Shown: piece after piece, positions 3,061-63,381 of the stretch | Position numbering within the stretch: the stretch's first letter is position 1 | Layout of the letters: the number at the start of each line of letters is the position of its first letter | From: a virus | DNA length: 64,000 bases | IMG/VR virus record: IMGVR_UViG_3300020048_000056 | Coordinates: 32,001 to 96,000 of that record | Direction: 5' to 3' (one strand) | Made by a program: the position numbers and the translations under genes | Notes under the pieces: generated by a model | Told to the model about the DNA's origin: nothing | The model's database searches: none | Seen by the model: the letters and a program-made list of their open reading frames with translations, nothing else

Positions 3061-3294
3061 ATGACAACAAACTTTAAAGCAATACTTAAATCATGGACAA
3101 ACGTTTTTGTAGCAGCCGTTATTACCGCTGTTATTGTTTCAATAGGAGATGGACAACTTACTGCTAATGACCTTTGGTATGTACTTATTGCTGGTGCCGT
3201 CGCCGTTCTACCTGTAATCAAGAATTACTTTGATTCTCAAGATCCTCGTTATGGTAAAGGATCGGATGCAACAGCAGTAGACGCTTCAAAGTAA
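3061..3294 (+). CDS. Holin, actinophage-type, 2 TM
   Basis: 77 aa, two hydrophobic helices, charged C-terminal DPRYGKG; promoter TGGTATAAT at 3024 and SD AAGGAG. Confidence 0.7.
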   Translation: MTTNFKAILKSWTNVFVAAVITAVIVSIGDGQLTANDLWYVLIAGAVAVLPVIKNYFDSQDPRYGKGSDATAVDASK

Positions 3295-3295
3295 C

Positions 3296-3745
3296 ATGAA
3301 TAAGATCAAAGGGGTGATTAAAACCACTACTCATGATCGTCCCTTTGATTTCTATGTTGCAGCGTTACTCTTTTTTGCGGGTCTATACGGAATAATAGAC
3401 GATTCTTGGCCAGAAAGTATTGGCGTAGACCTAGCATCAACTATAATTGTTATCATATCGTTATATTTGATGTTTTCTGGTTTAGTTATCATGCTTGCAT
3501 TAGGATGTAATCGTAAAAAGTATCCAGTTATATCCCTTATTGCTGAAATGTACGGATGGCTTTTTGTTTCTTCAGCAAGTCTTGCCATTATCATAACTGA
3601 AATTGCTGCTATGACAGTTTTTGAGCCAAGGTCATGGTGGACTTGGGCAATTATTGTAGGTGTTTGGGGTGGGTTACTTGTCTCTAGCCTATTAAGATTC
3701 ATTGATCTATTTATCATCCATAGAGGACTATACAAAAATGGATAG
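3296..3745 (+). CDS. 4-TM membrane protein (lysis cassette)
   Basis: Four hydrophobic segments; adjacent to holin. Confidence 0.6.
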   Translation: MNKIKGVIKTTTHDRPFDFYVAALLFFAGLYGIIDDSWPESIGVDLASTIIVIISLYLMFSGLVIMLALGCNRKKYPVISLIAEMYGWLFVSSASLAIIITEIAAMTVFEPRSWWTWAIIVGVWGGLLVSSLLRFIDLFIIHRGLYKNG

Positions 3746-4091
3746 TGCGATAGTCATTGCAATTATTGGAGTTCTAGCCGCTCCAGTAGCAGGTACACTT
3801 ACTTGGTTACTTAATCGTAAGAAACATATTTCTGATATTTATACTGCTATCAGCGATTCTTCTCAAACAGCCGTCGAAACCATGCAATTGACGATGAAGG
3901 AACTTCGTGAAGAACTTGTTCACGCTCGTGAGAAGATTGAAGAGATGATCCGCGAAAACGAACTACTTCGACAAGATTTACAGGTTCTAAAGAAGCAGAA
4001 TGAGATGTTAATGGAGCAGATTCACGATATGCGAGTTTTCTACGAGCAGTCACAACAGAATGACAGTTCGAACACCTTACCTCGCATTTAG
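3738..4091 (+). CDS. Membrane-anchored coiled-coil protein (lysis cassette)
   Basis: N-terminal TM then heptad-rich helix; SD GAGGA before ATG 3738. Confidence 0.6.
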   Translation: MDSAIVIAIIGVLAAPVAGTLTWLLNRKKHISDIYTAISDSSQTAVETMQLTMKELREELVHAREKIEEMIRENELLRQDLQVLKKQNEMLMEQIHDMRVFYEQSQQNDSSNTLPRI

Positions 4092-9525: not shown

Positions 9526-9885
9526 ATGGCTGTATTTAGTAAAACGATTCTTTCTGGTTCAACGGATGGTCGTGCCGTTAAGGTTGTTGCTACAGCAACT
9601 GCGGGTACAACAATTCATACTGGATCAGCGACTGCTGCAACGTTGCATGAGGTTTGGCTATATGCTCAAAACACTAGTACTGCTGCCGTTAAATTAACGG
9701 TTCAATGGGGTGGTACTACTTCGCCTGATGATGATATTGAGTTGACTGTGCAAGCGGAATCAGGACTTGTATTGGTTGCTCCAGGACTTCTAATTAAGGG
9801 AAATGCCACTCCGCTTGTGATTCGTGCATTTGCGGCAACGGCTAACGTTATTACTATTCATGGTTTTGTGAATGTTATTGCGTAA
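9526..9885 (+). CDS. Conserved phage beta-rich virion protein
   Basis: EVWLYAQN..VQWGGTTSPDD..HGFVN; SD AGGAGG. Confidence 0.6.
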   Translation: MAVFSKTILSGSTDGRAVKVVATATAGTTIHTGSATAATLHEVWLYAQNTSTAAVKLTVQWGGTTSPDDDIELTVQAESGLVLVAPGLLIKGNATPLVIRAFAATANVITIHGFVNVIA

Positions 9886-10880
9886 TGAGATATCCACGCA
9901 CACCATCGTTACCAGTTAGTGCTACGTCTTATGGGCGTGGAGTACAGCCAGCGTATGTTTCTATACCTTTAGTTGTTCAGTATTTGGTAATTGGTGGCGG
10001 GGCTTCTGGTGGTTTTGGAAATATCCAAGTTTCTGGAGGCGGGGGCGGTGCTGGTGGATATCGCTGTAGTTTTAATGGGGACAACTCTGGCACAAATGTT
10101 GGTGCTGAAATTGCTTTAGTTCTTTCCACAGGCTCATTTTTTCCAGTAAAAGTTGGAACTGGTGGGGCAACTGTTGGTCCAGCCACTGTACTTGCTGGCA
10201 ATATTGTTGCTGGCCTTAATGGAAATCCTTCTTCTTTCGGTCCCATTGAAAGCATCGGAGGTGGTGGCGGTGGAGCCGCTGCTAACGTAGCAACTCCTGC
10301 CTCAAACGGCGGTTCTGGTGGCGGCGGTGGTGCTGCTGCAACATCGGGTGTAGTTGGAAATGGGACCGTAGGCCAAGGGAAAATGGGCGGTACTGGATTT
10401 CCAAGCGCGACTGTAACTGTTAGATCGGCTGGTGGTGGTGGAGGAGCAGGCTTTGTTGGAGTTAATGGGGCAAGCACCGTTGGTGGAAATGGTGGCGCTG
10501 GAATAGCCTCATCTATTACTGGCACTTCTATAACCCGTGGCGGCGGTGGGGGCGGGTCTACCACGTTAAACGGTGGCGGTACTCAAGGAACTGGTGGCTC
10601 TGGCGGTGGTGGTGCTGCTTCGGTTGGTAACGTTTTGCCAGGTAACGGTTCCGCTAATACTGGTGGTGGTGGTGGTGGTATTTCTAATAATAATACCGTT
10701 GGTGGAGGAACGGTGGGAAGTGGATCGGGTGGATCAGGGGTAGTTATTATCAGGTATCCAGATGTTTATACTGCGATATTTTCTGCTGGTGTTACTCAGA
10801 CAACAGCAACTAGTGGACGTTTTAAAGTATCTACAATTACAGCGACTTCTACAATAAATGAAACGGTGACATTTAAATGA
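9885..10880 (+). CDS. Glycine-rich domain virion protein
   Basis: YLVIGGGASGG..GGGGAGG..GGSGVVIIRY. Confidence 0.75.
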   Translation: MRYPRTPSLPVSATSYGRGVQPAYVSIPLVVQYLVIGGGASGGFGNIQVSGGGGGAGGYRCSFNGDNSGTNVGAEIALVLSTGSFFPVKVGTGGATVGPATVLAGNIVAGLNGNPSSFGPIESIGGGGGGAAANVATPASNGGSGGGGGAAATSGVVGNGTVGQGKMGGTGFPSATVTVRSAGGGGGAGFVGVNGASTVGGNGGAGIASSITGTSITRGGGGGGSTTLNGGGTQGTGGSGGGGAASVGNVLPGNGSANTGGGGGGISNNNTVGGGTVGSGSGGSGVVIIRYPDVYTAIFSAGVTQTTATSGRFKVSTITATSTINETVTFK

Positions 10881-11005
10881 GAGTATCAGTATATGCCATT
10901 GCTAAGAATAAGTAGTAAAGAAGTTATCAGGCTTTATCTATTAAATCCATATGTGAGGGTAATATAAAAATATGAAATTCTATATGAGAATGGTATAATT
11001 TATTT

Positions 11006-12568
11006 ATGTCAGTTAGAATTCAAATGCGTAGGGATACCGCTGCCAATTGGACGGCAAATAATCCCATCCTTGCAGCAGGGGAAATGGGCCTAGATACCAC
11101 AAACAATACTTGGAAAATTGGTGATGGTGCTAAAACATGGTCATTGTTGACATACTCAAATGCCACATTTGGACCTTCATCATTAACTGGTAATACTACA
11201 ATTCCTGTTCTTTCAATTAGTCAAGTAGGTTCTGGTCCTGCCCTTCTTGTAGAAGATTCTACTTCTGTAGATACTGATCCTTTCATTATTACTTCATCAG
11301 GGGATGTTGGTATGGGTACACTAACTCCCTCAGCCAAACTAGATGTAGTTGGTAATGCAAGATTCTCAGGACAAATTACATCTCTAGTCGCTACAAGTTC
11401 TCCACCACTCATTGTTGCATCAACGACGGTAGTTACTAATCTTAATGCTGATCTATTAGATGGACAACATGGAAGTTATTATGCTCCCCTTGCTTCTCCA
11501 GCACTTACTGGAAGTCCAACAATCTTAGCAAACACAAGTACTCCAGCATTAACTATTACTCAGACTGGGGCAGGCGCAGCACTTTTGGTGGAAGATTCTG
11601 CATCTATTGATAGCACTCCTGTTGTTATTGATACAAATGGCAGGCTTGGTATTGGGACAACGACTCCCGCTTCTCTCCTGCATATTGAATCGGATGCGGC
11701 ACATCATGTTAGATTTATTAAGAACTCTACAGACGCACAACCTGTTTACCTGATGTTTAGGAAGCGTAGGGGCACGGCTGCCGCCCCAACAATTGTTGCT
11801 GCTAACGACTACTTGGGGATCACCCAATATCTTGCATATGACGGTGCATCTGATCAGGCTGTGGCATCAATTTCTGTGCAGGTTGATGGGACTCCTGCTG
11901 CTGGTGATGTACCTACTCGTATGTGGTTTGCTACGACTCCCGCTGGTTCTTCTACTCCAGTATCACGAATGAATATTGCTAGTACTGGAATAGTGACCAT
12001 TACTGGTACTGTTCCTGCTGTAGACACAAATACTACTCAGGTAGCGACTACTGCATTTGTGGTTGGTCAAGGGTACTTAAAGTCGGCCACGGCTTCTTCA
12101 ACCTATGCCCCACTTGCTTCTCCCACATTGACTGGTACTCCATTATCTACCACTGCTGCTATAGGTACAAATACAACACAGATAGCCACTACTGCATTTG
12201 TAAATCAACGTGAAGAATTTCTTGAGATTGCTCTTTCTGATGAAATTACCGCTATTACTACGGGGGTAGCCAAAGTAACATTACGTGCTCCATATGCTAT
12301 GACTCTTACCCAAATTCCAAGGTCAAACGTAAATACTGCTTCTTCTTCTGGTATTCCTACAGTAGACATTAAGGTTACTGGAACCACAATTCTAGGTGCC
12401 GCCAAATTAACTATCGATGCTACTGAAAAGACTTCTACTACAGCAGCAACTCCAACAACATTAGTCACATCAACTATTGCTGATGATGCTGAAATCACCT
12501 TTGATGTTACTGTCGCGGGTACAGGAACCAAGGGACTTAAAGTAATTATATATTACAGAAGGACATAA
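11006..12568 (+). CDS. Tail fibre with Mtd N-terminal-like domain
   Basis: RIQMRRDTAANWTANNPILAAGEMGLDT..KIGDG; TGGTATAAT-N6-ATG start. Confidence 0.75.
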   Translation: MSVRIQMRRDTAANWTANNPILAAGEMGLDTTNNTWKIGDGAKTWSLLTYSNATFGPSSLTGNTTIPVLSISQVGSGPALLVEDSTSVDTDPFIITSSGDVGMGTLTPSAKLDVVGNARFSGQITSLVATSSPPLIVASTTVVTNLNADLLDGQHGSYYAPLASPALTGSPTILANTSTPALTITQTGAGAALLVEDSASIDSTPVVIDTNGRLGIGTTTPASLLHIESDAAHHVRFIKNSTDAQPVYLMFRKRRGTAAAPTIVAANDYLGITQYLAYDGASDQAVASISVQVDGTPAAGDVPTRMWFATTPAGSSTPVSRMNIASTGIVTITGTVPAVDTNTTQVATTAFVVGQGYLKSATASSTYAPLASPTLTGTPLSTTAAIGTNTTQIATTAFVNQREEFLEIALSDEITAITTGVAKVTLRAPYAMTLTQIPRSNVNTASSSGIPTVDIKVTGTTILGAAKLTIDATEKTSTTAATPTTLVTSTIADDAEITFDVTVAGTGTKGLKVIIYYRRT

Positions 12569-12570
12569 TT

Positions 12571-13404
12571 ATGGGTGGAATTCTAATGAATCCTTATAGA
12601 CATAAATCTCCTTGGAATTTAGCAACTGGTGGTAATACAGTTAACACTGTGACTAATTACAATGGTACTGGACAAACTTGGAATGTTCATAGTTTTACCG
12701 ATACTGGCATTGGATCTTTTAATATTATTAATGGTCCAAATCCATTTACATATTTACTTATTGCTGGAGGCGGTGGGGCTCTTGGTAGTGGAACTTACGG
12801 TGGTGGAGGAGGAGCAGGAGGATACTTGACTGGATCAACATCATTAACTAATGGATCTATATCTTTGTCTGTTGGAATTGGAGGAGGTGGAAGCACACAA
12901 GGAGGTGGTAGCACTTTTGGATCTATCGTTACAATTGGAGGTGGATCTCAAGGAGGAGTCGGAGGCTCTGGAGGTGGGGGACAAGGATACTGGCCTTATG
13001 CTCCTGGCGTGGGTACTGCGGGGCAAGGTAATACAGGAGGAACAGGTGCCAGTGGAATTAAATCATCAGGTGGTGGTGGAGGAGCAGGGGCAGTAGGAGG
13101 TGCCGCCGCTTCTAGGGCAGGAAATGGAGGATCAGGTCTTTCTAGTTCAATAACTGGAATATCCGTAGTACGCGCAGGAGGAGGTGGAGGCGGATCAGAT
13201 GCAGAATCAGGAGCAGGAGGTACTGGTGCAGGATCTGGAGGATCTGGTGGCGGGGGTAACGGAGGATTTAATACTTTTCCGGCTGCCTCCAATGGTGGCA
13301 GCGGCGCTGCAAACACTGGTTCTGGTGGTGGAGGAGGAAGTCAGGCAGGATCAGGAGGTGTAGGAGGATCAGGAATAATTATAATTGCTTATCAGATAGC
13401 ATAA
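12571..13404 (+). CDS. Glycine-rich domain virion protein
   Basis: NLATGG..WNVHSFT..YLLIAGGGG..GGSGIIIIAY. Confidence 0.75.
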   Translation: MGGILMNPYRHKSPWNLATGGNTVNTVTNYNGTGQTWNVHSFTDTGIGSFNIINGPNPFTYLLIAGGGGALGSGTYGGGGGAGGYLTGSTSLTNGSISLSVGIGGGGSTQGGGSTFGSIVTIGGGSQGGVGGSGGGGQGYWPYAPGVGTAGQGNTGGTGASGIKSSGGGGGAGAVGGAAASRAGNGGSGLSSSITGISVVRAGGGGGGSDAESGAGGTGAGSGGSGGGGNGGFNTFPAASNGGSGAANTGSGGGGGSQAGSGGVGGSGIIIIAYQIA

Positions 13405-13435
13405 ACATAAGTGATATAATCTTATTAGGTAAATT

Positions 13436-14266
13436 ATGACTCAATCTATAGGAACAACCTATCTATCAACAATCGCTACTCTAAGCGATAAAGCAACCAT
13501 TGTTGAAGCATTTCAATATTATCATTTAGGTGGTCTTACAGGATCTGTAGAAGAGAACAGTATAGAGAAGCGACTTGTAGATATAAATGCCCGTGCAGGC
13601 ACAATAGAGACAAATTTGGGGTACGGAGAACTACCTTTGCCCTCTCCAGTAAACACAAGACTTACTGCTCTTGAAGTTGCAACTGGAGGAGGAACATTAT
13701 CCTCTACTTATCTTAAAATGATCCCCACTAGCATTAATCCAAACCTAGTCACTCCAGCAACAAGTTCAGTAGTTCCTATGACAATTCAAGGGGTAGTTGG
13801 TCAATCAGCAAACCTTCAAGAATGGAAAACTAGTGCTACCTCAGTAGCCTATGTAGATCCAATTGGAAAAATTTATTCAAGCAATGGGGGGGCAGTAGCA
13901 GAAGTAGCCACTATTTCTGGAACACAAACACTAACTGATAAAAGATATGTTGTTGGAATAAATCCAAGAACTGCATCCTATCTTTTACAACTAACAGATC
14001 AAAGTAAAGTTGTTGAAGTTAATTCATCATCAACAACATATGTTTCAATTCCTGGAAATGCAAACGTGGCTTTTCCAGTTGGAACATACATTGTTGTTTT
14101 GCAAACTGGTACAGGACAAGTAATAATAGATGGACAAATAAATGTTGGGTGGACGGTAGTTATTAATGCAACCCCAGGTCTTAAGGCCAGAACTCAATGG
14201 TCAATGATAACTTTAATTAAAAGAGCAACAAATACGTGGGTCGTTGCTGGAGATCTAGTAGCATAA
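13436..14266 (+). CDS. Minor tail/fibre protein
   Basis: GQSANLQEW, FPVGTYI..QTGTGQV..LIKRATNTWVVAGDL; TGATATAAT at 13412. Confidence 0.65.
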   Translation: MTQSIGTTYLSTIATLSDKATIVEAFQYYHLGGLTGSVEENSIEKRLVDINARAGTIETNLGYGELPLPSPVNTRLTALEVATGGGTLSSTYLKMIPTSINPNLVTPATSSVVPMTIQGVVGQSANLQEWKTSATSVAYVDPIGKIYSSNGGAVAEVATISGTQTLTDKRYVVGINPRTASYLLQLTDQSKVVEVNSSSTTYVSIPGNANVAFPVGTYIVVLQTGTGQVIIDGQINVGWTVVINATPGLKARTQWSMITLIKRATNTWVVAGDLVA

Positions 14267-14281
14267 TGGTATAATTTTACT

Positions 14282-15142
14282 ATGCTTTATACAGACCCAT
14301 ATCTCCTACCTTCCCCAGAGCAAACAGATCCAGTAGATGTATCCCTACACATTAATCTATTGGCTGAGGCGGTAGACCTAGAACTTGGTAAAAAGGCTGA
14401 CTTGACATCTCCAGAATTTACTGGAACACCTACATCAACTACTCCAAGTCCTGGAAATAATACAACATATATAGCCACAACAGCGTTTGTTAAAACAGCA
14501 ATTGATAATGATGTTATTGCAACTGGGGAAGTTGTAAATTCAATGCTTGCATCAGATTCAGTAACTAATATAAAGGTCAGTGCTTCAGCAGCCATAGCAC
14601 AATCAAAAATTAGTGGATTAACGACTGATTTAGGGTTAAAGGCTCCACTGGCTTCTCCAACTTTCACAGGGACAGTAGTTCTTCCAAGTACAACATCTAT
14701 AGGAACTGTTACAAGCACACATATTGGATATCTGTTTGCAGCAGCATCTAATATTCAAGATCAGATAAATGCTAAAGCAGAAAGAGTCAGAGAGCCATCT
14801 ACTGATTTAATAATTACTTCTAACATAACAACACTAGATGTTTCAAAATGGAGCATTGGTGTAGTTGCCCCATCTCCACCAGCAGCAAACTTTACGTTAA
14901 ACTTAACAAATGTATTAGTAACTGACAATACAACAATAACTATAACTCTAATGGTTACTCAAGGATCTACTGGGTATATTCCATCAGCATTGCAGATTGA
15001 TGGGGTAGGGCAGACTATTAAGTGGCAAGGGGGTGTAGCGCCAGTTCCAACATCAGGTGCAGGGAAAATTGATATATTCTCATTCACTATTGCCCGTCGT
15101 ACAACTTGGTCAGCATATGGATCTGCGTTACTAAACTTCTAA
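14282..15142 (+). CDS. Minor tail/fibre protein
   Basis: KADLTSPEFTGTP, IATTAFV, KAPLASPTFTG, IKWQGG..IDIFSF; TGGTATAAT-N6-ATG start. Confidence 0.65.
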   Translation: MLYTDPYLLPSPEQTDPVDVSLHINLLAEAVDLELGKKADLTSPEFTGTPTSTTPSPGNNTTYIATTAFVKTAIDNDVIATGEVVNSMLASDSVTNIKVSASAAIAQSKISGLTTDLGLKAPLASPTFTGTVVLPSTTSIGTVTSTHIGYLFAAASNIQDQINAKAERVREPSTDLIITSNITTLDVSKWSIGVVAPSPPAANFTLNLTNVLVTDNTTITITLMVTQGSTGYIPSALQIDGVGQTIKWQGGVAPVPTSGAGKIDIFSFTIARRTTWSAYGSALLNF

Positions 15143-15933
15143 TGCCAAGATTATCTAGCATGGGTGGCATATATGGACCAATATCTGGTAAAGCCAGAAG
15201 AATGTTTAATTTAGCAACTGGTGGATCAATTGCTGAAGTTCCAAACTACAATGGAACTATAGAAACTTGGAATGTTCACACAATTACTGCTAATAGTAAT
15301 TTTACAATTCTAAGATCAATAGATGCGTTCTCAATTCTTGCTGTTGCTGGTGGTGGGGCTGGTGGAGCGCAGATTGATGGGAATACTCGTTGCGGAACTG
15401 GTGGTGGTGGTGGGGTAATCCTTACTTCTGCTTCCATAAATCTTGGCACTTATCCAGTTGTTGTTGGTCTTGCTGGTCCTGGAATTTATCCGACACTCGC
15501 CAATAACGGTGGAAATACTACGTTCAATGGGCTTACTGCTATCGGAGGCGGCGGTGGTGGGAGAGCAGCAAATACAGGAAATTACAACGGCGCTAACGGT
15601 GGATCTGGAGGTGGAGGCGCTAATGATCCTGGTGGAAGTTATGGCAGCGGAGGAACTAATACTGCTGGCCAAGGCTACGCGGGTGGTAGTGGATGGAATA
15701 CAACGAATACTTGCAATGGTGGTGGTGGCGCTACAAGTGCTGGGGCGCAGAATTATGCTGGTAGAGCCAGAACGGTTACGATTACGGGGTCATCTTTGAA
15801 AGTCGGGGCAGGAGGCGCAGGAGACGGTGTTAACGCCGACACCTCAACATACGGACAAGGTGGGTACGGTGGTGTTGGATATCAGGGCATAGGGCAAAAT
15901 GGCGTTTTAATAGTTGCCTATAGAATAAGATAG
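15142..15933 (+). CDS. Glycine-rich domain virion protein
   Basis: TAATG overlap start; NLATGG..WNVHT..GVLIVAY. Confidence 0.7.
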   Translation: MPRLSSMGGIYGPISGKARRMFNLATGGSIAEVPNYNGTIETWNVHTITANSNFTILRSIDAFSILAVAGGGAGGAQIDGNTRCGTGGGGGVILTSASINLGTYPVVVGLAGPGIYPTLANNGGNTTFNGLTAIGGGGGGRAANTGNYNGANGGSGGGGANDPGGSYGSGGTNTAGQGYAGGSGWNTTNTCNGGGGATSAGAQNYAGRARTVTITGSSLKVGAGGAGDGVNADTSTYGQGGYGGVGYQGIGQNGVLIVAYRIR

Positions 15934-19112: not shown

Positions 19113-22100
19113 ATGACCACCACAATAAACCAATATGCCGAAAGGGTATATGCGGAGCATCCAATTGCCCTGTGGTCACTAGATGAAACTGCATACTATC
19201 TTGCTCTTGCCAATGACAACTCTAGACTCTTTTCAAATTGGTCATTAACTGAATGTACTTCTGACGATTCTCCAGATCTCACAGGAATCCCAGTATCCCC
19301 ATTTAAAAATAGTGCAATATATTCATCTATAACTAAAACAACATCATCAGCAGGATCGATAAGGGCTTTATCTCCAATGCTTTTTGGACCATCGGATATT
19401 AACACCTCTGTTAAAACATTTTGCGTAAATTTCTTTTTATATCAAAAACCAACATATATTAACTACTTTCAAATTGGCATCACTTATTGGAATTCTCTTG
19501 GCATTCAGAAAGAGGTATGGTTTGATGAAACCCCTCCACCAATTAATGAATCTTGGGCTAACTTTAATCAAATATTTGATATTCCTTTTAGTTGGTCAGG
19601 GGATTTACAACTAATGATCAAGGTAGACTTTAAGGATGGTGCAGATGTTTCAGCAAGGACTCTTATCCTGAATGGACTATCAATAGGTCAAGGATCAGAA
19701 ACAACATGTTACGAAAATCTTGGTAGTGAAGCAATAACTTTACCAAGTTCTACAAATATTGTGGGTCTTTCTGGTATACCTGCTGATCAGTATGGAATTC
19801 TATCGGATAACGCTTATTACCTTGTTAGAGAAAATAATCTTTTAGCCTATAATGATGGATTCCCCATAATTTTTGGTACAGGAAGTTCTACTAAGTTATA
19901 TCCTTCTGGAGTGAATCTTCCATCATTAATTTTTCCTGGTAAAGGAATGCTAAACGAAGCAGGTAGAAATAAAAAATATACCCTAGAGGCTTGGATTCAA
20001 ATTGATCCAAAAACAACATCTGCCATAAAGATCTTAGGACCATTATCAGGAACAGATGGAATCTATGTAAAAGAAGGTTTTATTACTTTAGTGGTTGGGG
20101 ACAACATATCCTCTCATTGTGTTTCTGAATGGTACAGGCCAATGCTTATTCATATTCAAATAAAAGACAACAATGTTGTTCTTCTTATTAATGGTGAAGA
20201 GGTTGCAAATGTTTTAATTGATAAGAAAACTATAAACCTACCAAATGATACAGATTGGTGGGGGGTATATTCTTATCCATCAATAAATATGTTTAAGATT
20301 GATGCTATATCTATCTATCCATACATAGTCTCAGCAATTGCTGCAAAAAGAAGGTTCGTTTATGGTCAAGGAACTCCTGCAATTCAATCGATAAATAATG
20401 GATTTTCTGGAACAGCCGTAACCATAGACTTCTCTACAGCAGAGTATAGTTCAAACATAATTTATCCAGACATTGCTCGTTGGGATGCAGGGTATTTCAA
20501 TAACCTAAATGCTACAAAGGACTATATATCAGTTCCAGATTATACACTTCCAGAAATAAATATTAACGGTAGAGATATTCAGGAATGGTATAGAGATAAT
20601 CGTGTCGTTTATGGACTAGAATATCCATTAAATAATAGTCCAAACTTTATTACATTCAGACCAAATATCACTTACGATATAGACGGAAATCCTATATCAT
20701 GGAGTACCGAAGGAATAAATTATACTTCTGACGAGCAATCCTATTTAAATTTTCCAAGTTTAAATGTTTTAAATGATCCAGTTTCAACAATATATGGAAT
20801 ATTTGAAGCAGAGCAAAACTTAACCATTGGAAGAACTTTAATGAGTTTTGTAAATATCACAAATGGAGAAACGTTTGAGATAACAATTACTTTCGATCCA
20901 GATACTGAATTAAACTTAATTAAATACTTTATAAATAACACTGAGTTAGAGTCAGCAAGGCAGTCAGTTACCACTGGAATAGAATGTCTTGTTGGAATTA
21001 ATATTGAAGCACTTGGTATAGAGTTTGGGTATGAAGTTTCTAAATTCTTTTCTTCTCCAACATCAATACAGTTGTTTGTTGGTGGTAATGGCAATAATAC
21101 CTTTGAAGGAAAGATATATTTGGTTGGATTTTCAAATCAAACGAATTACAATGAAATATCTACAAACTTTTTATCAAACGGTACAGCAATAAACGATAGG
21201 TATGAATTACTGTTCGATCATATTGCAAGTTACACATTAATACCAGAACTAGAGTATGGTCATCTGTTCCTAGACATATCGGTATCATCTTCTTGGGAAG
21301 AATATTTTCCCTTAACTTATTTTGCAAGTTACGTTAAAGATGAAAATGGAAACCCATATTATGACTTAGACATGTTGCAAATAAATTTGGGATATGTGTC
21401 CGTTGAGTCAAATGTTGTTTGGACATATCAAGAACTTAGAGATGCTTATGTGGGGCAAACCTACCAAGATCTAAAAGATTCAATCTATTCAAATTACTTT
21501 AATCTTAGTAAAAACAATACAACGGGGAACTCAGTAAACATCTCTAACTCATCCCTTCAATCATACATGACATTCCAATCACTTTCTGATGGAGCCAATT
21601 CACCAATATCTGATTTTCCATATACAAAAGAACTTATAAGCAGCAAGGTTATTGATCCAGATTTAGAGAATACAGAACTGTTTCCTCAAAGAGCATATGA
21701 AACAAAGTTTTCATTTAACGACAATGTAATTGTTTATCCACCTAAAACAAATAATTTTGAAGACTATGCCCTAGTCGTACATTTTCAGATAAATCAAAGA
21801 TCTATTCTGAAGAATCCATTAAAGGTTAAGAGTTTTGAAATAACATCTAAGAATCTTAATTATGCAAGCATAACTAATCCAAAAACCCAAAGGAATTATG
21901 TTGGAACAAAGTTTGGAACAAAGATAAATCCAGAAATAGATATATTTGGAGTGCTAGATGGAAAGAGCAAGAATCCATATCTAATATACAAGACAGCGAC
22001 TCCCTACATATATAAAACTGGAAAGTCTGGAATTAGAGTTATAAACCAGTCATCAATATCTCTTGAAACTTTAGATCAATATCAAGTAAGTATTCCAGTA

Positions 22101-22919
22101 AACTCTAATAGTTCATACGACTTTAAAGTAGCAGCATTAACGTTTTTCCTTATGGGGAATATTGCAGATGGATCAGATCAAATACCCCTTATTGAAATAA
22201 AACATAAAGATGGAATAATCACCTTAGTATTAAATAAAACAGAAACTGAGACTAACATAAAGGTATATAGTAGAGCGATTAATACATTTGTTAATGGAGG
22301 TTACTCAGATACTGTTTTATGGACAGACTATTGGGATTGTGGAACATCTAGTACTCTTCCAAATGTATTTATAGATGTATCAGTAGGATCTCTAGATCAA
22401 ACCAACATTCCAGATAATTACGTTGAAATTGATGGAGTCAGTTTCTATCAAAATGGAAGGTATGTCAAGAATCCTTCAATAAAAAATGATGAATGGAATT
22501 CTATAGGTCTTTCCTTTGCAGAGGAACTTAATTTTGATGGGTATCCCGATGGGAACATTAAGATATTCGGAGGGTTCACCTTTAATGACATATCATATTA
22601 CCTATCAGAAGGAATGGGCATTCAAAGAGATATTAATGCTCGTACATGGCAAAAGGTACTTGATAGTGATTATGCAGGAGATCCCATCATCCCTGACAAC
22701 CTTTGGTCATACTGGTCAGCAGAAGACAGAAAATGGCAAAGTGTGTATGAACTTAGTAAGTCATCTTCATACCTAAGTACCCCAGCAAATATTTATCAAG
22801 CATATACTGGTACGAATAGGTACATTATTGATGACAACTCAGGTATTGAGTTAAATCAAACACAAACTTCCGTATTGACAGACGTATCTTGGTCTGCATA
22901 TACTGGTAAACCCGTATAA
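19113..22919 (+). CDS. Large virion structural protein with ConA/LamG-like regions
   Basis: 1268 aa; AEHPIALWSLDE N-terminus, beta-rich; TGCTATAAT-N6-ATG start. Confidence 0.6.
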   Translation: MTTTINQYAERVYAEHPIALWSLDETAYYLALANDNSRLFSNWSLTECTSDDSPDLTGIPVSPFKNSAIYSSITKTTSSAGSIRALSPMLFGPSDINTSVKTFCVNFFLYQKPTYINYFQIGITYWNSLGIQKEVWFDETPPPINESWANFNQIFDIPFSWSGDLQLMIKVDFKDGADVSARTLILNGLSIGQGSETTCYENLGSEAITLPSSTNIVGLSGIPADQYGILSDNAYYLVRENNLLAYNDGFPIIFGTGSSTKLYPSGVNLPSLIFPGKGMLNEAGRNKKYTLEAWIQIDPKTTSAIKILGPLSGTDGIYVKEGFITLVVGDNISSHCVSEWYRPMLIHIQIKDNNVVLLINGEEVANVLIDKKTINLPNDTDWWGVYSYPSINMFKIDAISIYPYIVSAIAAKRRFVYGQGTPAIQSINNGFSGTAVTIDFSTAEYSSNIIYPDIARWDAGYFNNLNATKDYISVPDYTLPEININGRDIQEWYRDNRVVYGLEYPLNNSPNFITFRPNITYDIDGNPISWSTEGINYTSDEQSYLNFPSLNVLNDPVSTIYGIFEAEQNLTIGRTLMSFVNITNGETFEITITFDPDTELNLIKYFINNTELESARQSVTTGIECLVGINIEALGIEFGYEVSKFFSSPTSIQLFVGGNGNNTFEGKIYLVGFSNQTNYNEISTNFLSNGTAINDRYELLFDHIASYTLIPELEYGHLFLDISVSSSWEEYFPLTYFASYVKDENGNPYYDLDMLQINLGYVSVESNVVWTYQELRDAYVGQTYQDLKDSIYSNYFNLSKNNTTGNSVNISNSSLQSYMTFQSLSDGANSPISDFPYTKELISSKVIDPDLENTELFPQRAYETKFSFNDNVIVYPPKTNNFEDYALVVHFQINQRSILKNPLKVKSFEITSKNLNYASITNPKTQRNYVGTKFGTKINPEIDIFGVLDGKSKNPYLIYKTATPYIYKTGKSGIRVINQSSISLETLDQYQVSIPVNSNSSYDFKVAALTFFLMGNIADGSDQIPLIEIKHKDGIITLVLNKTETETNIKVYSRAINTFVNGGYSDTVLWTDYWDCGTSSTLPNVFIDVSVGSLDQTNIPDNYVEIDGVSFYQNGRYVKNPSIKNDEWNSIGLSFAEELNFDGYPDGNIKIFGGFTFNDISYYLSEGMGIQRDINARTWQKVLDSDYAGDPIIPDNLWSYWSAEDRKWQSVYELSKSSSYLSTPANIYQAYTGTNRYIIDDNSGIELNQTQTSVLTDVSWSAYTGKPV

Positions 22920-28243: not shown

Positions 28244-29233
28244 ATGGAGATTACCAGATTACAACCATTCCCATTAGTATTTAATCATTCAGGGTTTGAG
28301 CCAGAAACTGATTATGTTCTGGCCATCCTTGATGATCATGCAACTGATCTTGTAGAGATCGCTACGGCTAGTGATATAGATGGAAATATCATCACTCCTT
28401 TACCTGCTTATTTTTCTAGATATGATGATGAGTATCGTGGAGAAGTTTATTATAGTTTGGGGGTAGATCCAGTAACTGGACTAAATATTCGTGGAGATCT
28501 TCTTTGGATAGATACTATTACCATCATGCGACCATATGTTGACCCAGACGTATTGGCTGATACTCCAGATGATACTGCTGATGCAAAGATGTATGAAGCA
28601 ATTGCTCGTGCGATTATCAATTCAATTACTGGTGGATTCATGTATAAGCGTGAAGTTATTGAAACAGTTGGTTTAGGCGCTGATTATCTATCTGTACCAT
28701 TTAGACTTAATAAGATTATTAGAGTATACGAAAATGATGTTGTAGTTTATGATACAGAGCCTCTAGATCCCACAACTTGGGTTAATAGAAGAGAGTACTA
28801 CATCTCACCAGATAAGGCCACCATAAGCGTTGTAATGCCTAATACGACAGGATACAATCGTATGCAGTCCAAAGCGGTACAGCCACAAATGCCTGCATCA
28901 GATTCTTTTACCTTGTATAACACAAATGATTCACCAAATATTATTCAGAATATTACTGGAAGCCCCATGTTCCCTTCTGGCTGGGACTATACTGTAATAG
29001 TTGATGCTGGATGGCCAATCATTCCTCAAGATATTAAGCAAGCAACACTGTTGATTGTTAATGATCTCAAGTGTAATAATATTCCATACATCAACTCCTA
29101 CATTAAAAGTTACAAGAGTGATCAATTCACCCTACAATTCGCTGACGATGTTTTCACAGATACGGGAAATCGTATTGCAGATAAGATTCTTTCTGCATAC
29201 GTCCGACCAATCTATCGCCTAGGTGTACTGTAA
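28244..29233 (+). CDS. Head-tail adaptor
   Basis: ARAIINSITG..GW..IPQDIKQAT..DKIL..Y; synteny. Confidence 0.7.
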   Translation: MEITRLQPFPLVFNHSGFEPETDYVLAILDDHATDLVEIATASDIDGNIITPLPAYFSRYDDEYRGEVYYSLGVDPVTGLNIRGDLLWIDTITIMRPYVDPDVLADTPDDTADAKMYEAIARAIINSITGGFMYKREVIETVGLGADYLSVPFRLNKIIRVYENDVVVYDTEPLDPTTWVNRREYYISPDKATISVVMPNTTGYNRMQSKAVQPQMPASDSFTLYNTNDSPNIIQNITGSPMFPSGWDYTVIVDAGWPIIPQDIKQATLLIVNDLKCNNIPYINSYIKSYKSDQFTLQFADDVFTDTGNRIADKILSAYVRPIYRLGVL

Positions 29234-61767: not shown

Positions 61768-61917
61768 ATGGCTAAGAACGCAGGACTTCATCACTCTGAA
61801 TCATACTTAAGAAAGCGTTTGTATCTGGATAAGAAAACACCAGAGCAGATTGCCATTGAGTGTGGGGTAAGTTTACAAATCATCTATCGACAACTAAAAA
61901 AGTTTGGATTAAAATGA
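61768..61917 (+). CDS. Small HTH protein
   Basis: KTPEQIAIECGVSLQIIYRQLKKFG. Confidence 0.7.
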   Translation: MAKNAGLHHSESYLRKRLYLDKKTPEQIAIECGVSLQIIYRQLKKFGLK

Positions 61918-62120
61918 GTGATCAGGTAAATCATCCTATCCATTACACGAGTCACCCCTCTGGAATAGAGGTAATTCAAATTACTGAGCATATGAATTTT
62001 TGTCTTGGTAATGCTATTAAATATATTCTAAGGTCTGATTTAAAAGGTAAGCAAATTGAGGACTTAAAGAAGGCTGTTTGGTATATTAATCGGGAGATTA
62101 ATCGCCTAGAACAAACCTAA
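61914..62120 (+). CDS. DUF3310-type phage protein
   Basis: DQVNHPIHY..FCLGNAIKYILR..EDLKKAVWYI. Confidence 0.85.
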   Translation: MSDQVNHPIHYTSHPSGIEVIQITEHMNFCLGNAIKYILRSDLKGKQIEDLKKAVWYINREINRLEQT

Positions 62121-62135
62121 AATAAATAAACATCG

Positions 62136-62151
62136 TGTGATTCATTTCACA
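62136..62151. promoter_or_regulatory. CRP/GlxR-type operator
   Basis: TGTGA-ttcatt-TCACA, 10/10 consensus, intergenic. Confidence 0.65.
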
Positions 62152-62229
62152 TTTTGCTAAAATACCTATCAATCGTGCATAATTGCTGTTATGCTAGAAC
62201 CTGTTGCCGCCGCTATAGGAGGAAATAAC

Positions 62230-62778
62230 ATGACGAAAACGAAACTGGTAGGAGGAGTTATGGCTAGCATTATGGCAGTAGCATTAGTTACCGCATCTGC
62301 AAGTTCTGCTTCAACCGAACAGGTATATGCTAAGTCAAATATACCTATTGCGACGGAGGCTTTGCTAAAGCCTGTCGTTAATAAAACAAAGGCTAAATCA
62401 AAGCCAAACAATGTCTGTAAAAGCTGGCTCGCCAAGGAATTGAAGAGTGCAGGATTTAAAGACAAGGGATTGAAGATCGCATGGTCAATTGCTATGCGTG
62501 AAAGTGGAGGAAGGGCTAACGCAATTTCTTCCACTGGAGACTACGGAGTCTTCCAGTTCAACCGCGCAGCGTGGTCAGGGCAACCTTGGTGGAATACACA
62601 TAAGTTGCTCACACGCAAATACAATATCATGGTTGCCTACAAGATATCTCAACATGGCACAACATGGTATCCCTGGGACATAAATGGTCAAGGGAAGCAC
62701 CTTAAGAGGTATACACCTAACAGTGTTTACCACAAGTACGAGGCTTGGTACAGTAAGTATCCAAGCAACTGTAAGTAA
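62230..62778 (+). CDS. Secreted lytic transglycosylase (SLT/Rpf-like lysozyme fold)
   Basis: Sec signal peptide (MTKTK, hydrophobic core, ASA), AMRESGG catalytic Glu, DYGVFQF, WYPW; SD AGGAGG. Confidence 0.8.
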   Translation: MTKTKLVGGVMASIMAVALVTASASSASTEQVYAKSNIPIATEALLKPVVNKTKAKSKPNNVCKSWLAKELKSAGFKDKGLKIAWSIAMRESGGRANAISSTGDYGVFQFNRAAWSGQPWWNTHKLLTRKYNIMVAYKISQHGTTWYPWDINGQGKHLKRYTPNSVYHKYEAWYSKYPSNCK

Positions 62779-62856
62779 GTAGTGAGCAGGGCAGGAACCC
62801 TAAGTTATCTATTGGTGGCAACAATCCTGCCCTGCCACTGCTATAATTGGAGTCTT

Positions 62857-63381
62857 ATGAGCGAAATAGTAGATCACATTGAAGAAGTCAATAGAGTTGC
62901 ATCAGAGTACATTAAGGGGTCTAATGAGTCTGAAATATCTAAGCAACTGGATATCCCACGAGCAAGAGTCTCATCTCTTCTTAGAGAGTGGAAGAGCATG
63001 GCAAGCAATTCAGAGGCTGTCAGAGCACGAGCGCGTGAGGCTCTATCAGGAGCAGATCAACACTATTCTAAACTCATCAAGCAAGCATATGAAGTTATCG
63101 ATGAAGCAACTTTTAACAGCAACCTATCTGCAAAGACTGCTGCAATTAAACTCATCCTTGATATAGAATCTAAGCGTATTGATATGCTTCAAAAGGCGGG
63201 ACTCCTAGAAAATAAGGAACTTGCAGATCAGTTACTAGAAACAGAACGTAAGCAGGAACTGTTGATGAAGGTTCTTGTTGAAGTGTCAGGGTCATGTGCG
63301 GTATGTAAGCCCAAGGTTCTTAAGCGCCTAGCAGAGGTTTCTGGTCCCAATGGAGAAGCCGTGGTTATCAATGGCGATTGA
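62857..63381 (+). CDS. terS: Terminase small subunit
   Basis: N-terminal HTH (EISKQLDIPRARV), helical, overlaps terL; TGCTATAAT at 62839. Confidence 0.7.
   Translation: MSEIVDHIEEVNRVASEYIKGSNESEISKQLDIPRARVSSLLREWKSMASNSEAVRARAREALSGADQHYSKLIKQAYEVIDEATFNSNLSAKTAAIKLILDIESKRIDMLQKAGLLENKELADQLLETERKQELLMKVLVEVSGSCAVCKPKVLKRLAEVSGPNGEAVVINGD

Follow-up and report, generated by a model that had tools for sequence, protein, structure and literature searches.

A conserved CRP/GlxR-type palindrome in the predicted promoter of a cassette for a putatively secreted lysozyme-like enzyme in uncultured actinophages

The locus described here raises the question of whether a phage gene for a putatively secreted cell wall enzyme may have come under the control of a global regulator of the bacterial host. 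The window (the whole 64-kb stretch of DNA that was analysed) comprises bases 32001–96000 of the IMG/VR virus record IMGVR_UViG_3300020048_000056 (105,797 bp, 40.5% GC) and contains, in one intergenic spacer, the palindrome TGTGATTCATTTCACA (TGTGA-TTCATT-TCACA; positions 62136–62151, centre 62143.5, assigned to neither strand), which agrees exactly with the CRP/GlxR-type operator consensus in both retained half-sites. The gene that follows (62230–62778, plus strand) is predicted to encode a secreted lysozyme-like enzyme of 182 amino acids with an SLT_3 domain and a signal-peptide-like N-terminus. On balance, we favour the reading that the palindrome is a functional operator of the CRP/FNR family, that the host Crp/GlxR protein binds it, and that it belongs to the promoter of an accessory cassette for the secreted enzyme. 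Confidence differs between the parts of this reading: that the box is a functional operator appears very likely, that host Crp is the protein that binds it is likely, and whether binding would activate transcription is close to evenly balanced.

TGTGATTCATTTCACA was the only exact instance of TGTGA-N6-TCACA in the window and, indeed, in the entire genome, compared to an expectation of 0.07 matches per genome from shuffled sequences. This agreed with the first-pass annotation of the locus, which had described the box as an exact CRP consensus and the only one noticed. Since the window taken alone gives only a post-hoc P of ~0.06, the weight of the support is comparative. Briefly, viral contigs were searched with the encoded protein, yielding 40 loci, and 2 more came from contigs binned into metagenome-assembled genomes (MAGs); conservation was counted over 34 non-redundant upstream regions of related loci (~186 kb in total). 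A box with no more than one mismatch was located 60–130 nt before the ATG in 28 of the 34 loci, and a single further box of this quality was found in the remaining ~186 kb. The first-pass annotation had named absence of the box upstream of orthologues as an observation that would speak against its proposal; instead, the half-sites have been selectively kept. In an alignment anchored on the box, half-site positions held 1.6–2.0 bits of information, compared to mostly 0.1–0.5 bits in the 6-nt spacer and the flanks, and the spacer sequences differed by locus (ACTTTG, CAAGAA, CTGACT, GAAGGC and others). Variants with one mismatch each disrupted the palindrome on one side, with no compensatory changes. 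Thus, the conserved half-sites, variable spacer and one-sided mismatches together carry the signature of a protein-binding site and not of an RNA stem.

The same data bear on whether the inverted repeat acts as RNA, forming a hairpin that would end transcripts of the preceding DUF3310 gene (61914–62120, plus strand; Pfam DUF3310, E = 7e-17), the left border of the slot in which the cassette lies. The repeat begins 16 nt past the DUF3310 stop codon and has a folding energy of −7.5 kcal/mol (z = −2.7), and in the window TTTT comes directly after it. However, a terminator scan returned nothing at the repeat, relatives have no T-run after it, the stem sequence itself is conserved while its variants break pairing on one side only, and the repeat tracks the enzyme gene in loci where other genes separate it from DUF3310. 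The terminator reading, which we regard as highly improbable, was rejected on these grounds. Owing to inserted genes, the distance between DUF3310 and the enzyme gene varied from 311 to 1346 nt, whereas the box stayed at a constant ~93 nt from the ATG, which ties the box to the promoter of the enzyme gene.

If the box is an operator for a CRP/FNR-family dimer, the next question is which protein would bind it. Searches of the phage in every frame, at E ≤ 1, found neither a cNMP_binding nor an HTH_Crp_2 domain, and a phage-encoded CRP was discarded as a candidate. Because the phage encodes no CRP-family protein, the binder would most likely be the host Crp/GlxR, the orthologue of Mycobacterium tuberculosis Rv3676, in line with the assignment of the box to a host regulon in the first-pass annotation. 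A candidate regulator of this type is encoded in a possible host order: an orthologue of Rv3676 in a Nanopelagicales MAG matched the CRP structures of M. tuberculosis at E = 3e-82, with a recognition helix, ASRETVNKALADF, identical to that of M. tuberculosis CRP and with the nth and metallo-beta-lactamase (MBL)-hydrolase gene neighbours that it shares with Rv3676, and an Rv3676/GlxR orthologue was detected in 59 of 61 sampled genomes of the order.

The palindrome might also serve some other dimeric DNA-binding protein, either the 49-amino acid helix-turn-helix (HTH) protein of the phage (61768–61917) or a different host factor, in which case its match to CRP would be coincidental. This alternative draws on the position of the small HTH gene, 220 nt upstream of the box, on the finding that candidate host genomes are not enriched in perfect boxes, and on two sites in the early region, TGTGAGGTACACCACA and TGTGATGTACCCCACA, that resemble a variant motif. 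We nonetheless judge it unlikely, as 10 of 10 half-site positions fit the CRP consensus and this same pattern is what has been conserved, while the HTH gene is also present in loci that have no box (L018, L021 and L026) and in the BE-cluster phage Gilson, whose 100 kb contain 0 exact boxes and 3 one-mismatch matches; the absence of a CRP-family gene from the phage was also counted against it. The two early-region palindromes (genome positions 30070 and 30965; L069:14070 and 14965) lie in the early leftward block, in or beside short spacers that separate small early genes, and could be weaker CRP sites or represent a separate motif, TGTGA-N6-CCACA. Elsewhere in the genome, a one-mismatch site at 28517 overlaps an array of TTATACACA repeats and another, at 103879, stands before a gene for a small soluble protein.

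A host Crp protein bound at the box would act on the promoter that follows. The extended −10 element TGTTATGCT (62187–62195, plus strand) belongs to a conserved sigma-A-type promoter with a predicted transcription start near 62201–62203, and the pattern TGnTAnnnT was present in 34 of 34 loci. In the window it is preceded at a spacing of 18 nt by a weak −35 hexamer, CTATCA (62166–62171, plus strand), matching TTGACA at 3 of 6 positions, while most relatives have TTGACA or TTGGCA 17–18 nt upstream of the −10. A Shine-Dalgarno (SD) sequence, GGAGG (62218–62222, plus strand), and the ATG at 62230 complete the start region. Promoters of the form TTGACA-N17-TGnTAnnnT are concentrated in the leftward early block of the genome and occur at a few other sites, and membership in this class suggests that the cassette is read by host sigma-A RNA polymerase. 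The first-pass annotation had correctly described TGTTATGCT, the SD sequence and the start of the gene, together with a first extended −10 candidate, TGCTAAAAT (62155–62163, plus strand), and had proposed that the box might either repress that first promoter or activate the second. Only the second of these options was retained. At the position of TGCTAAAAT, which is probably not a conserved promoter, relatives have CCC(C/T)ATAAA, with neither the TG nor the final T; as relatives do not have the element, it was dropped as a promoter, and with it the proposed repression, which is unlikely. The CCC(C/T)ATAAA element keeps a constant distance to the −35 hexamer and not to the box, and could be an UP-like site for the alpha subunit of RNA polymerase.

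Relative to the conserved promoter, the box centre falls near −58 to −61, and in every box-bearing locus the box is upstream of the −35. Distances run from the centre of the box to the first T in the −10 hexamer, with the start assumed to lie 6–7 nt past the hexamer. The commonest class was 48.5 nt (12 loci; ~−60.5 to −61.5), followed by 58.5 nt (4 loci; ~−70.5), which is one helical turn beyond it, and 46.5 nt (3 loci including the window; ~−58.5). The commonest position and the one a turn further upstream fit class-I activation by CRP with respect to the predicted start, which is suggestive: CRP bound upstream of the −35 would contact the alpha subunit of RNA polymerase, and output of the enzyme would then follow the cyclic AMP (cAMP) level or energy state of the host. 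In addition, 4 of the 5 box-less loci have a −35 that matches TTGACA at 5–6 of 6 positions, compared to only 3 of 6 in several box-bearing loci including the window, which is weakly consistent with an activator role.

Several observations weigh against this regulatory reading. Helical phasing was loose, with a distance of 54.5 nt in 4 loci (~−66.5) that does not fit class-I activation, 41.5 nt in 2 loci (~−53.5), and instances of 51.5 and 56.5 nt. The promoter is close to consensus in most relatives and should need no activator. About one in six cassettes has no box, the 5 box-less loci each showing at least 3 mismatches, and no box was found upstream of the chromosomal homologues of the enzyme. 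Perfect boxes numbered 0–2 in each of 5 small genomes from the candidate host order, no different from a control pattern. Finally, the link to Nanopelagicales and Aquiluna as hosts is weak evidence, as it rests on phage-like contigs binned into MAGs.

Further control may act on the message. The 5' untranslated region (62202–62222, plus strand) begins with the conserved sequence TGTTGCCGCC (62202–62211), of which CCGCC is able to pair with the SD sequence GGAGG. The loop between the two arms varied (GCAA, GCTATA, GCGTA, GTCA) while both arms were constant; the leader fold of the window copy alone was not significant (z = −1.0). Directly after the gene lies a hairpin (62779–62841, plus strand; free energy −36.9 kcal/mol, z = −7.2) with a stem that co-varies among relatives, a probable terminator. 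Its loop, TGGTGGCAACA (62813–62823), is complementary to the leader sequence TGTTGCCGCC, and among relatives always includes GGTGGCAAC(A), likewise complementary to the leader. Nearly every member of a set of ~40 non-redundant relatives showed this complementarity, with compensatory changes in L035 (leader ATTGCCGCC, loop GGTGGCAAT) and in L099 and L105 (leader GUUGUUGCC, loop GGUAACAAC), which suggests that pairing of the leader with the 3' loop forms a long-range 5'–3' mRNA switch or protects the ends of the message. The anti-SD arm and the leader–loop pairing would thus add to the control exerted at the operator. A more ambitious proposal, that the locus is a portable module with three layers for secreted muralytic enzymes (a Crp/GlxR operator that senses the cAMP or energy state of the host, an anti-SD leader that keeps translation off, and a 3'-loop/leader pairing that releases translation or protects the message), is put forward tentatively and is more doubtful than the operator itself; as part of that proposal, the module would be set in a widespread clade of uncultured actinophages that probably live in freshwater.

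The box would be one part of the promoter of an autonomous cassette, which is inserted in a slot between the DUF3310 gene and a gp88-like/terminase pair. In all loci that have it, the enzyme gene stood directly upstream of this pair, which in the window consists of a gp88-like gene (62857–63381) and the gene for the terminase large subunit (from 63350), both recognised by their matches to Gilson gp88 and terminase. An extended −10 element for the next gene, TGCTATAAT (62839–62847, plus strand), is kept in relatives as CTGCTATAAT or CTGCTATACT right after the hairpin. A search with the gp88-like protein returned at least 599 contigs, and in relatives at 55–58% identity DUF3310 abuts the gp88-like gene, the slot being empty. 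Other relatives (L085, L091, L098, L099, L102, L104–L106 and L112) have the same slot, promoter, leader, signal peptide and a QVYAKSAPTAT motif, followed by a C-terminal domain (KCIMxRESRFSY...SSARGAYQFLD) that differs from SLT_3 and has no Pfam match. Many of the cassettes with alternative cargo also carry the box, which was perfect in L085 and had 1 mismatch in L091, L092, L094, L099, L100, L104, L105, L106 and L110. Retention of the box, promoter, leader and signal peptide across exchanges of cargo indicates that the regulatory and export module is the conserved unit. Three of the cargos (L085:1387–1941, L091:1905–2432 and L108:1951–2460) share the signal peptide and QVYAKSAPTAT and have unrelated C-terminal domains with ES...GAYQF; belonging to no Pfam family, these domains look like new lysozyme-like families.

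The product of the gene in the window contains the motifs RESGG, DYGVFQF and WYPW and matched Pfam SLT_3 (PF18896) at 45.6 bits (cut-off 27; E = 1e-11), while its match to the SLT family was barely above threshold (22.2 vs 21.3 bits). The Rpf domain PF06737 scored 23.9 bits for this protein, below its cut-off of 27, although a few homologues are assigned PF06737 in precomputed annotation. Of the original description as an Rpf/SLT-like muralytic enzyme, the SLT_3 part is therefore upheld and membership in the Rpf family is not. Across 22 aligned sequences, Glu91 (E91-S92 in RESGG) was invariant, as were Cys63 and Cys181, and a motif EQVYAKSN-PIATEA was conserved just past the signal-peptide-like N-terminus. 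The latter was recognised by eye as MTKTK-LVGGVMASIMAVALVTA-SASSAS, in which a charged n-region, a hydrophobic h-region and an AxA-like c-region can be made out, as they can in all homologues; given its high content of Gly, Ala and Ser, a signal-arrest-release (SAR)-type anchor is a possible alternative. An AlphaFold2 model of the protein was poor (predicted local distance difference test (pLDDT) 62), and Foldseek on that model returned only weak rows of the lysozyme superfamily. The search for homologues returned 179, many of them on phage contigs of 90–117 kb, and none was found in 50,697 deposited phage genomes. Chromosomal homologues, at 35–46% identity, came from high-GC Actinomycetota (GC 62–71%). 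In these (L046–L054, Actinomycetota MAGs), SLT_3 is the C-terminal domain of secreted proteins of 380–540 amino acids with long Ala-rich coiled coils, and the phage SLT_3 domain may derive from cellular proteins of this kind.

We also considered whether the enzyme is simply the phage's own Sec-exported endolysin, with the box merely tuning the supply of lysin and no extra wall-remodelling factor involved. Six-frame family searches of the genome found no Amidase_2, M23, GH25 or NlpC/P60, and the only SLT match was the cassette gene; Pfam and PHROG scans of ~60 other open reading frames (ORFs) identified tail-fibre, glycosyltransferase, ice-binding, ferritin and other domains and no named peptidoglycan (PG) hydrolase. 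Moreover, Amidase_2 was present in 0 of 8 cassette-bearing records and in 3 of 3 of the closest cassette-less relatives, where it occurs as a cytoplasmic endolysin just after terminase. A better endolysin candidate was nevertheless found outside the window, ~8.4 kb downstream of the cassette, in an ORF of 235 amino acids (genome 103176–103883; L068:7176–7883). Its C-terminal 64 amino acids are held in common with the Amidase_2 endolysins of the relatives (E = 4e-15), it has no signal peptide, and it has conserved H..D and HxH motifs. The model of this protein is confident (pLDDT 94.6) and resembles the zinc L,D-endopeptidase VldE joined to a SleB-type PG-binding domain. Members of its family are found on the contigs that bear the cassette, and PG_binding_1 (PF01471) is present in some of them, while the 235-amino acid ORF itself had no Pfam or PHROG match. 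It is probably the endolysin of the phage, a LAS-type zinc peptidase with a PG-binding domain. The ORF looks like the outcome of a swap of the endolysin catalytic domain, which would explain why the cassette and Amidase_2 are anti-correlated.

Once this ORF had been found, the idea of the SLT_3 enzyme as the sole endolysin was downgraded, and we now hold it to be quite improbable. The cassette, whose promoter is of host type, lies apart from the genes for holin-like membrane proteins (window 3061–4091), and the SLT_3 protein differs from a canonical endolysin in its signal-peptide-like N-terminus, its distance from those genes and the existence of a separate candidate. The likely endolysin is not beside the holin-like genes either. 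The view in the first-pass annotation that the enzyme is distinct from the ordinary endolysin is supported. The SLT_3 protein is most likely a second, exported wall enzyme that accompanies a likely cytoplasmic endolysin, and its action on the wall could consist of pre-weakening, remodelling or an Rpf-like effect.

The phages that bear the cassette would form a subclade of uncultured actinophages that encode WhiB and have relatives in the BE cluster of Streptomyces phages. The phage encodes WhiB (51 bits vs a cut-off of 23.6), which serves as an actinophage marker (PMC10914622), and its gene order is collinear with that of Streptomyces phage Gilson (BE cluster, Stanwilliamsviridae), with which it has in common genes for ribonucleotide reductase, portal, protease, capsid, tape measure, helicase, primase, polymerase, RecA, a Cas4-like nuclease, RuvC, gp88 and terminase. 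The actinophage origin proposed at first reading is therefore well founded. The ends of the record overlap by 55 bp, from which we infer that the assembly is circular. The cassette and its box were also found on phage-like contigs of 40% GC binned into one Aquiluna MAG and one Nanopelagicales MAG; a tRNA search for host clues found none in the window. Other features of the genome include an ice-binding-like protein (genome 8454–9311; PF11999, E = 1.5e-25) and genes for a ferritin-like protein (L068:5804–6244) and a pyrimidine-dimer glycosylase (L068:8176–8688). A run of paralogous glycine-rich proteins (PF21722) together with a protein that has a major tropism determinant N-terminal (Mtd_N) domain (window 9885–15933) suggests a variable receptor-binding module. 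An ORF of 1268 amino acids (window 19113–22919) that matched nothing in Pfam or PHROG lies between ribonucleotide reductase and portal, where Gilson has an endolysin and a lectin-like protein.

For an uncultured phage group, the site is unusually well backed by comparative data. It would provide a concrete link between host cAMP/CRP signalling and the action of a phage on the wall, in slow-growing bacteria of the type that dominates lakes. The locus also resembles a compact natural expression module in which operator, promoter, leader, signal peptide and terminator are combined with exchangeable catalytic domains. If the proposal is true, this module matches the dose of a wall-remodelling or Rpf-like enzyme to the physiology of the host, for instance in slow-growing or dormant cells, independently of the holin–endolysin clock. 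With the secreted muralytic enzyme and the likely endolysin being distinct proteins, one may also ask what advantage a lytic phage would draw from exporting a wall hydrolase under control of the host state. No case of an actinophage borrowing a global regulator of its host was found in the literature searched. Borrowing of host regulators by phages is itself known (e.g. NtcA), and what appears to be new is that a probable site for a global regulator of the host has become fixed on a phage cassette whose product is a secreted muralytic enzyme.

The closest regulatory parallel is with actinobacterial CRP systems. In M. tuberculosis, rpfA and whiB1 are under the control of Rv3676, which recognises a CAP-like site (PMC4117774, PMC10187061). 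The CRP (Rv3676) promoters of these genes and the GlxR regulon of Corynebacterium glutamicum resemble the present locus in that, in an actinobacterial context, a sigma-A promoter is preceded by a TGTGA-N6-TCACA-type site, and the M. tuberculosis system is further alike in that the regulated gene encodes a secreted wall enzyme with a lysozyme fold (by prediction in the phage) and that the candidate binder shares its recognition helix. In contrast to that system, the target described here is phage-borne, belongs to SLT_3 with a sub-cut-off score for Rpf, and has chromosomal homologues without a box. Marine T4-like cyanophage genomes carry binding sites for NtcA, also a CRP-family protein (PMC3037559). 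In both cases sites for a host global regulator of the CRP family, a predicted one in the present phage, stand before phage genes and presumably couple their expression to host physiology; however, NtcA recognises GTA-N8-TAC, senses 2-oxoglutarate and nitrogen status, operates in another host phylum and has many sites per genome, compared to one strongly conserved site on one cassette here.

In its architecture, the cassette is similar to phage morons, which likewise have their own host-type promoter and terminator hairpin, are inserted between conserved neighbours, are absent from distant relatives and carry exchangeable cargo; here we found a conserved promoter of its own, a co-varying 3' hairpin, presence or absence between conserved neighbours, and alternative cargo. 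Morons are classically features of temperate phages and are expressed from the prophage, whereas the lineage described here is most like the BE-cluster phages of Streptomyces, which are described as lytic. With respect to the enzyme, endolysins with signal peptides or SAR sequences exist, such as Lys44 of Oenococcus phage fOg44. Like these, the SLT_3 protein would be a phage muralytic enzyme exported via Sec ahead of lysis; unlike them, it is found away from the holin-like genes in a phage that has a better endolysin candidate in a separate cytoplasmic protein with LAS-type peptidase and PG-binding domains.

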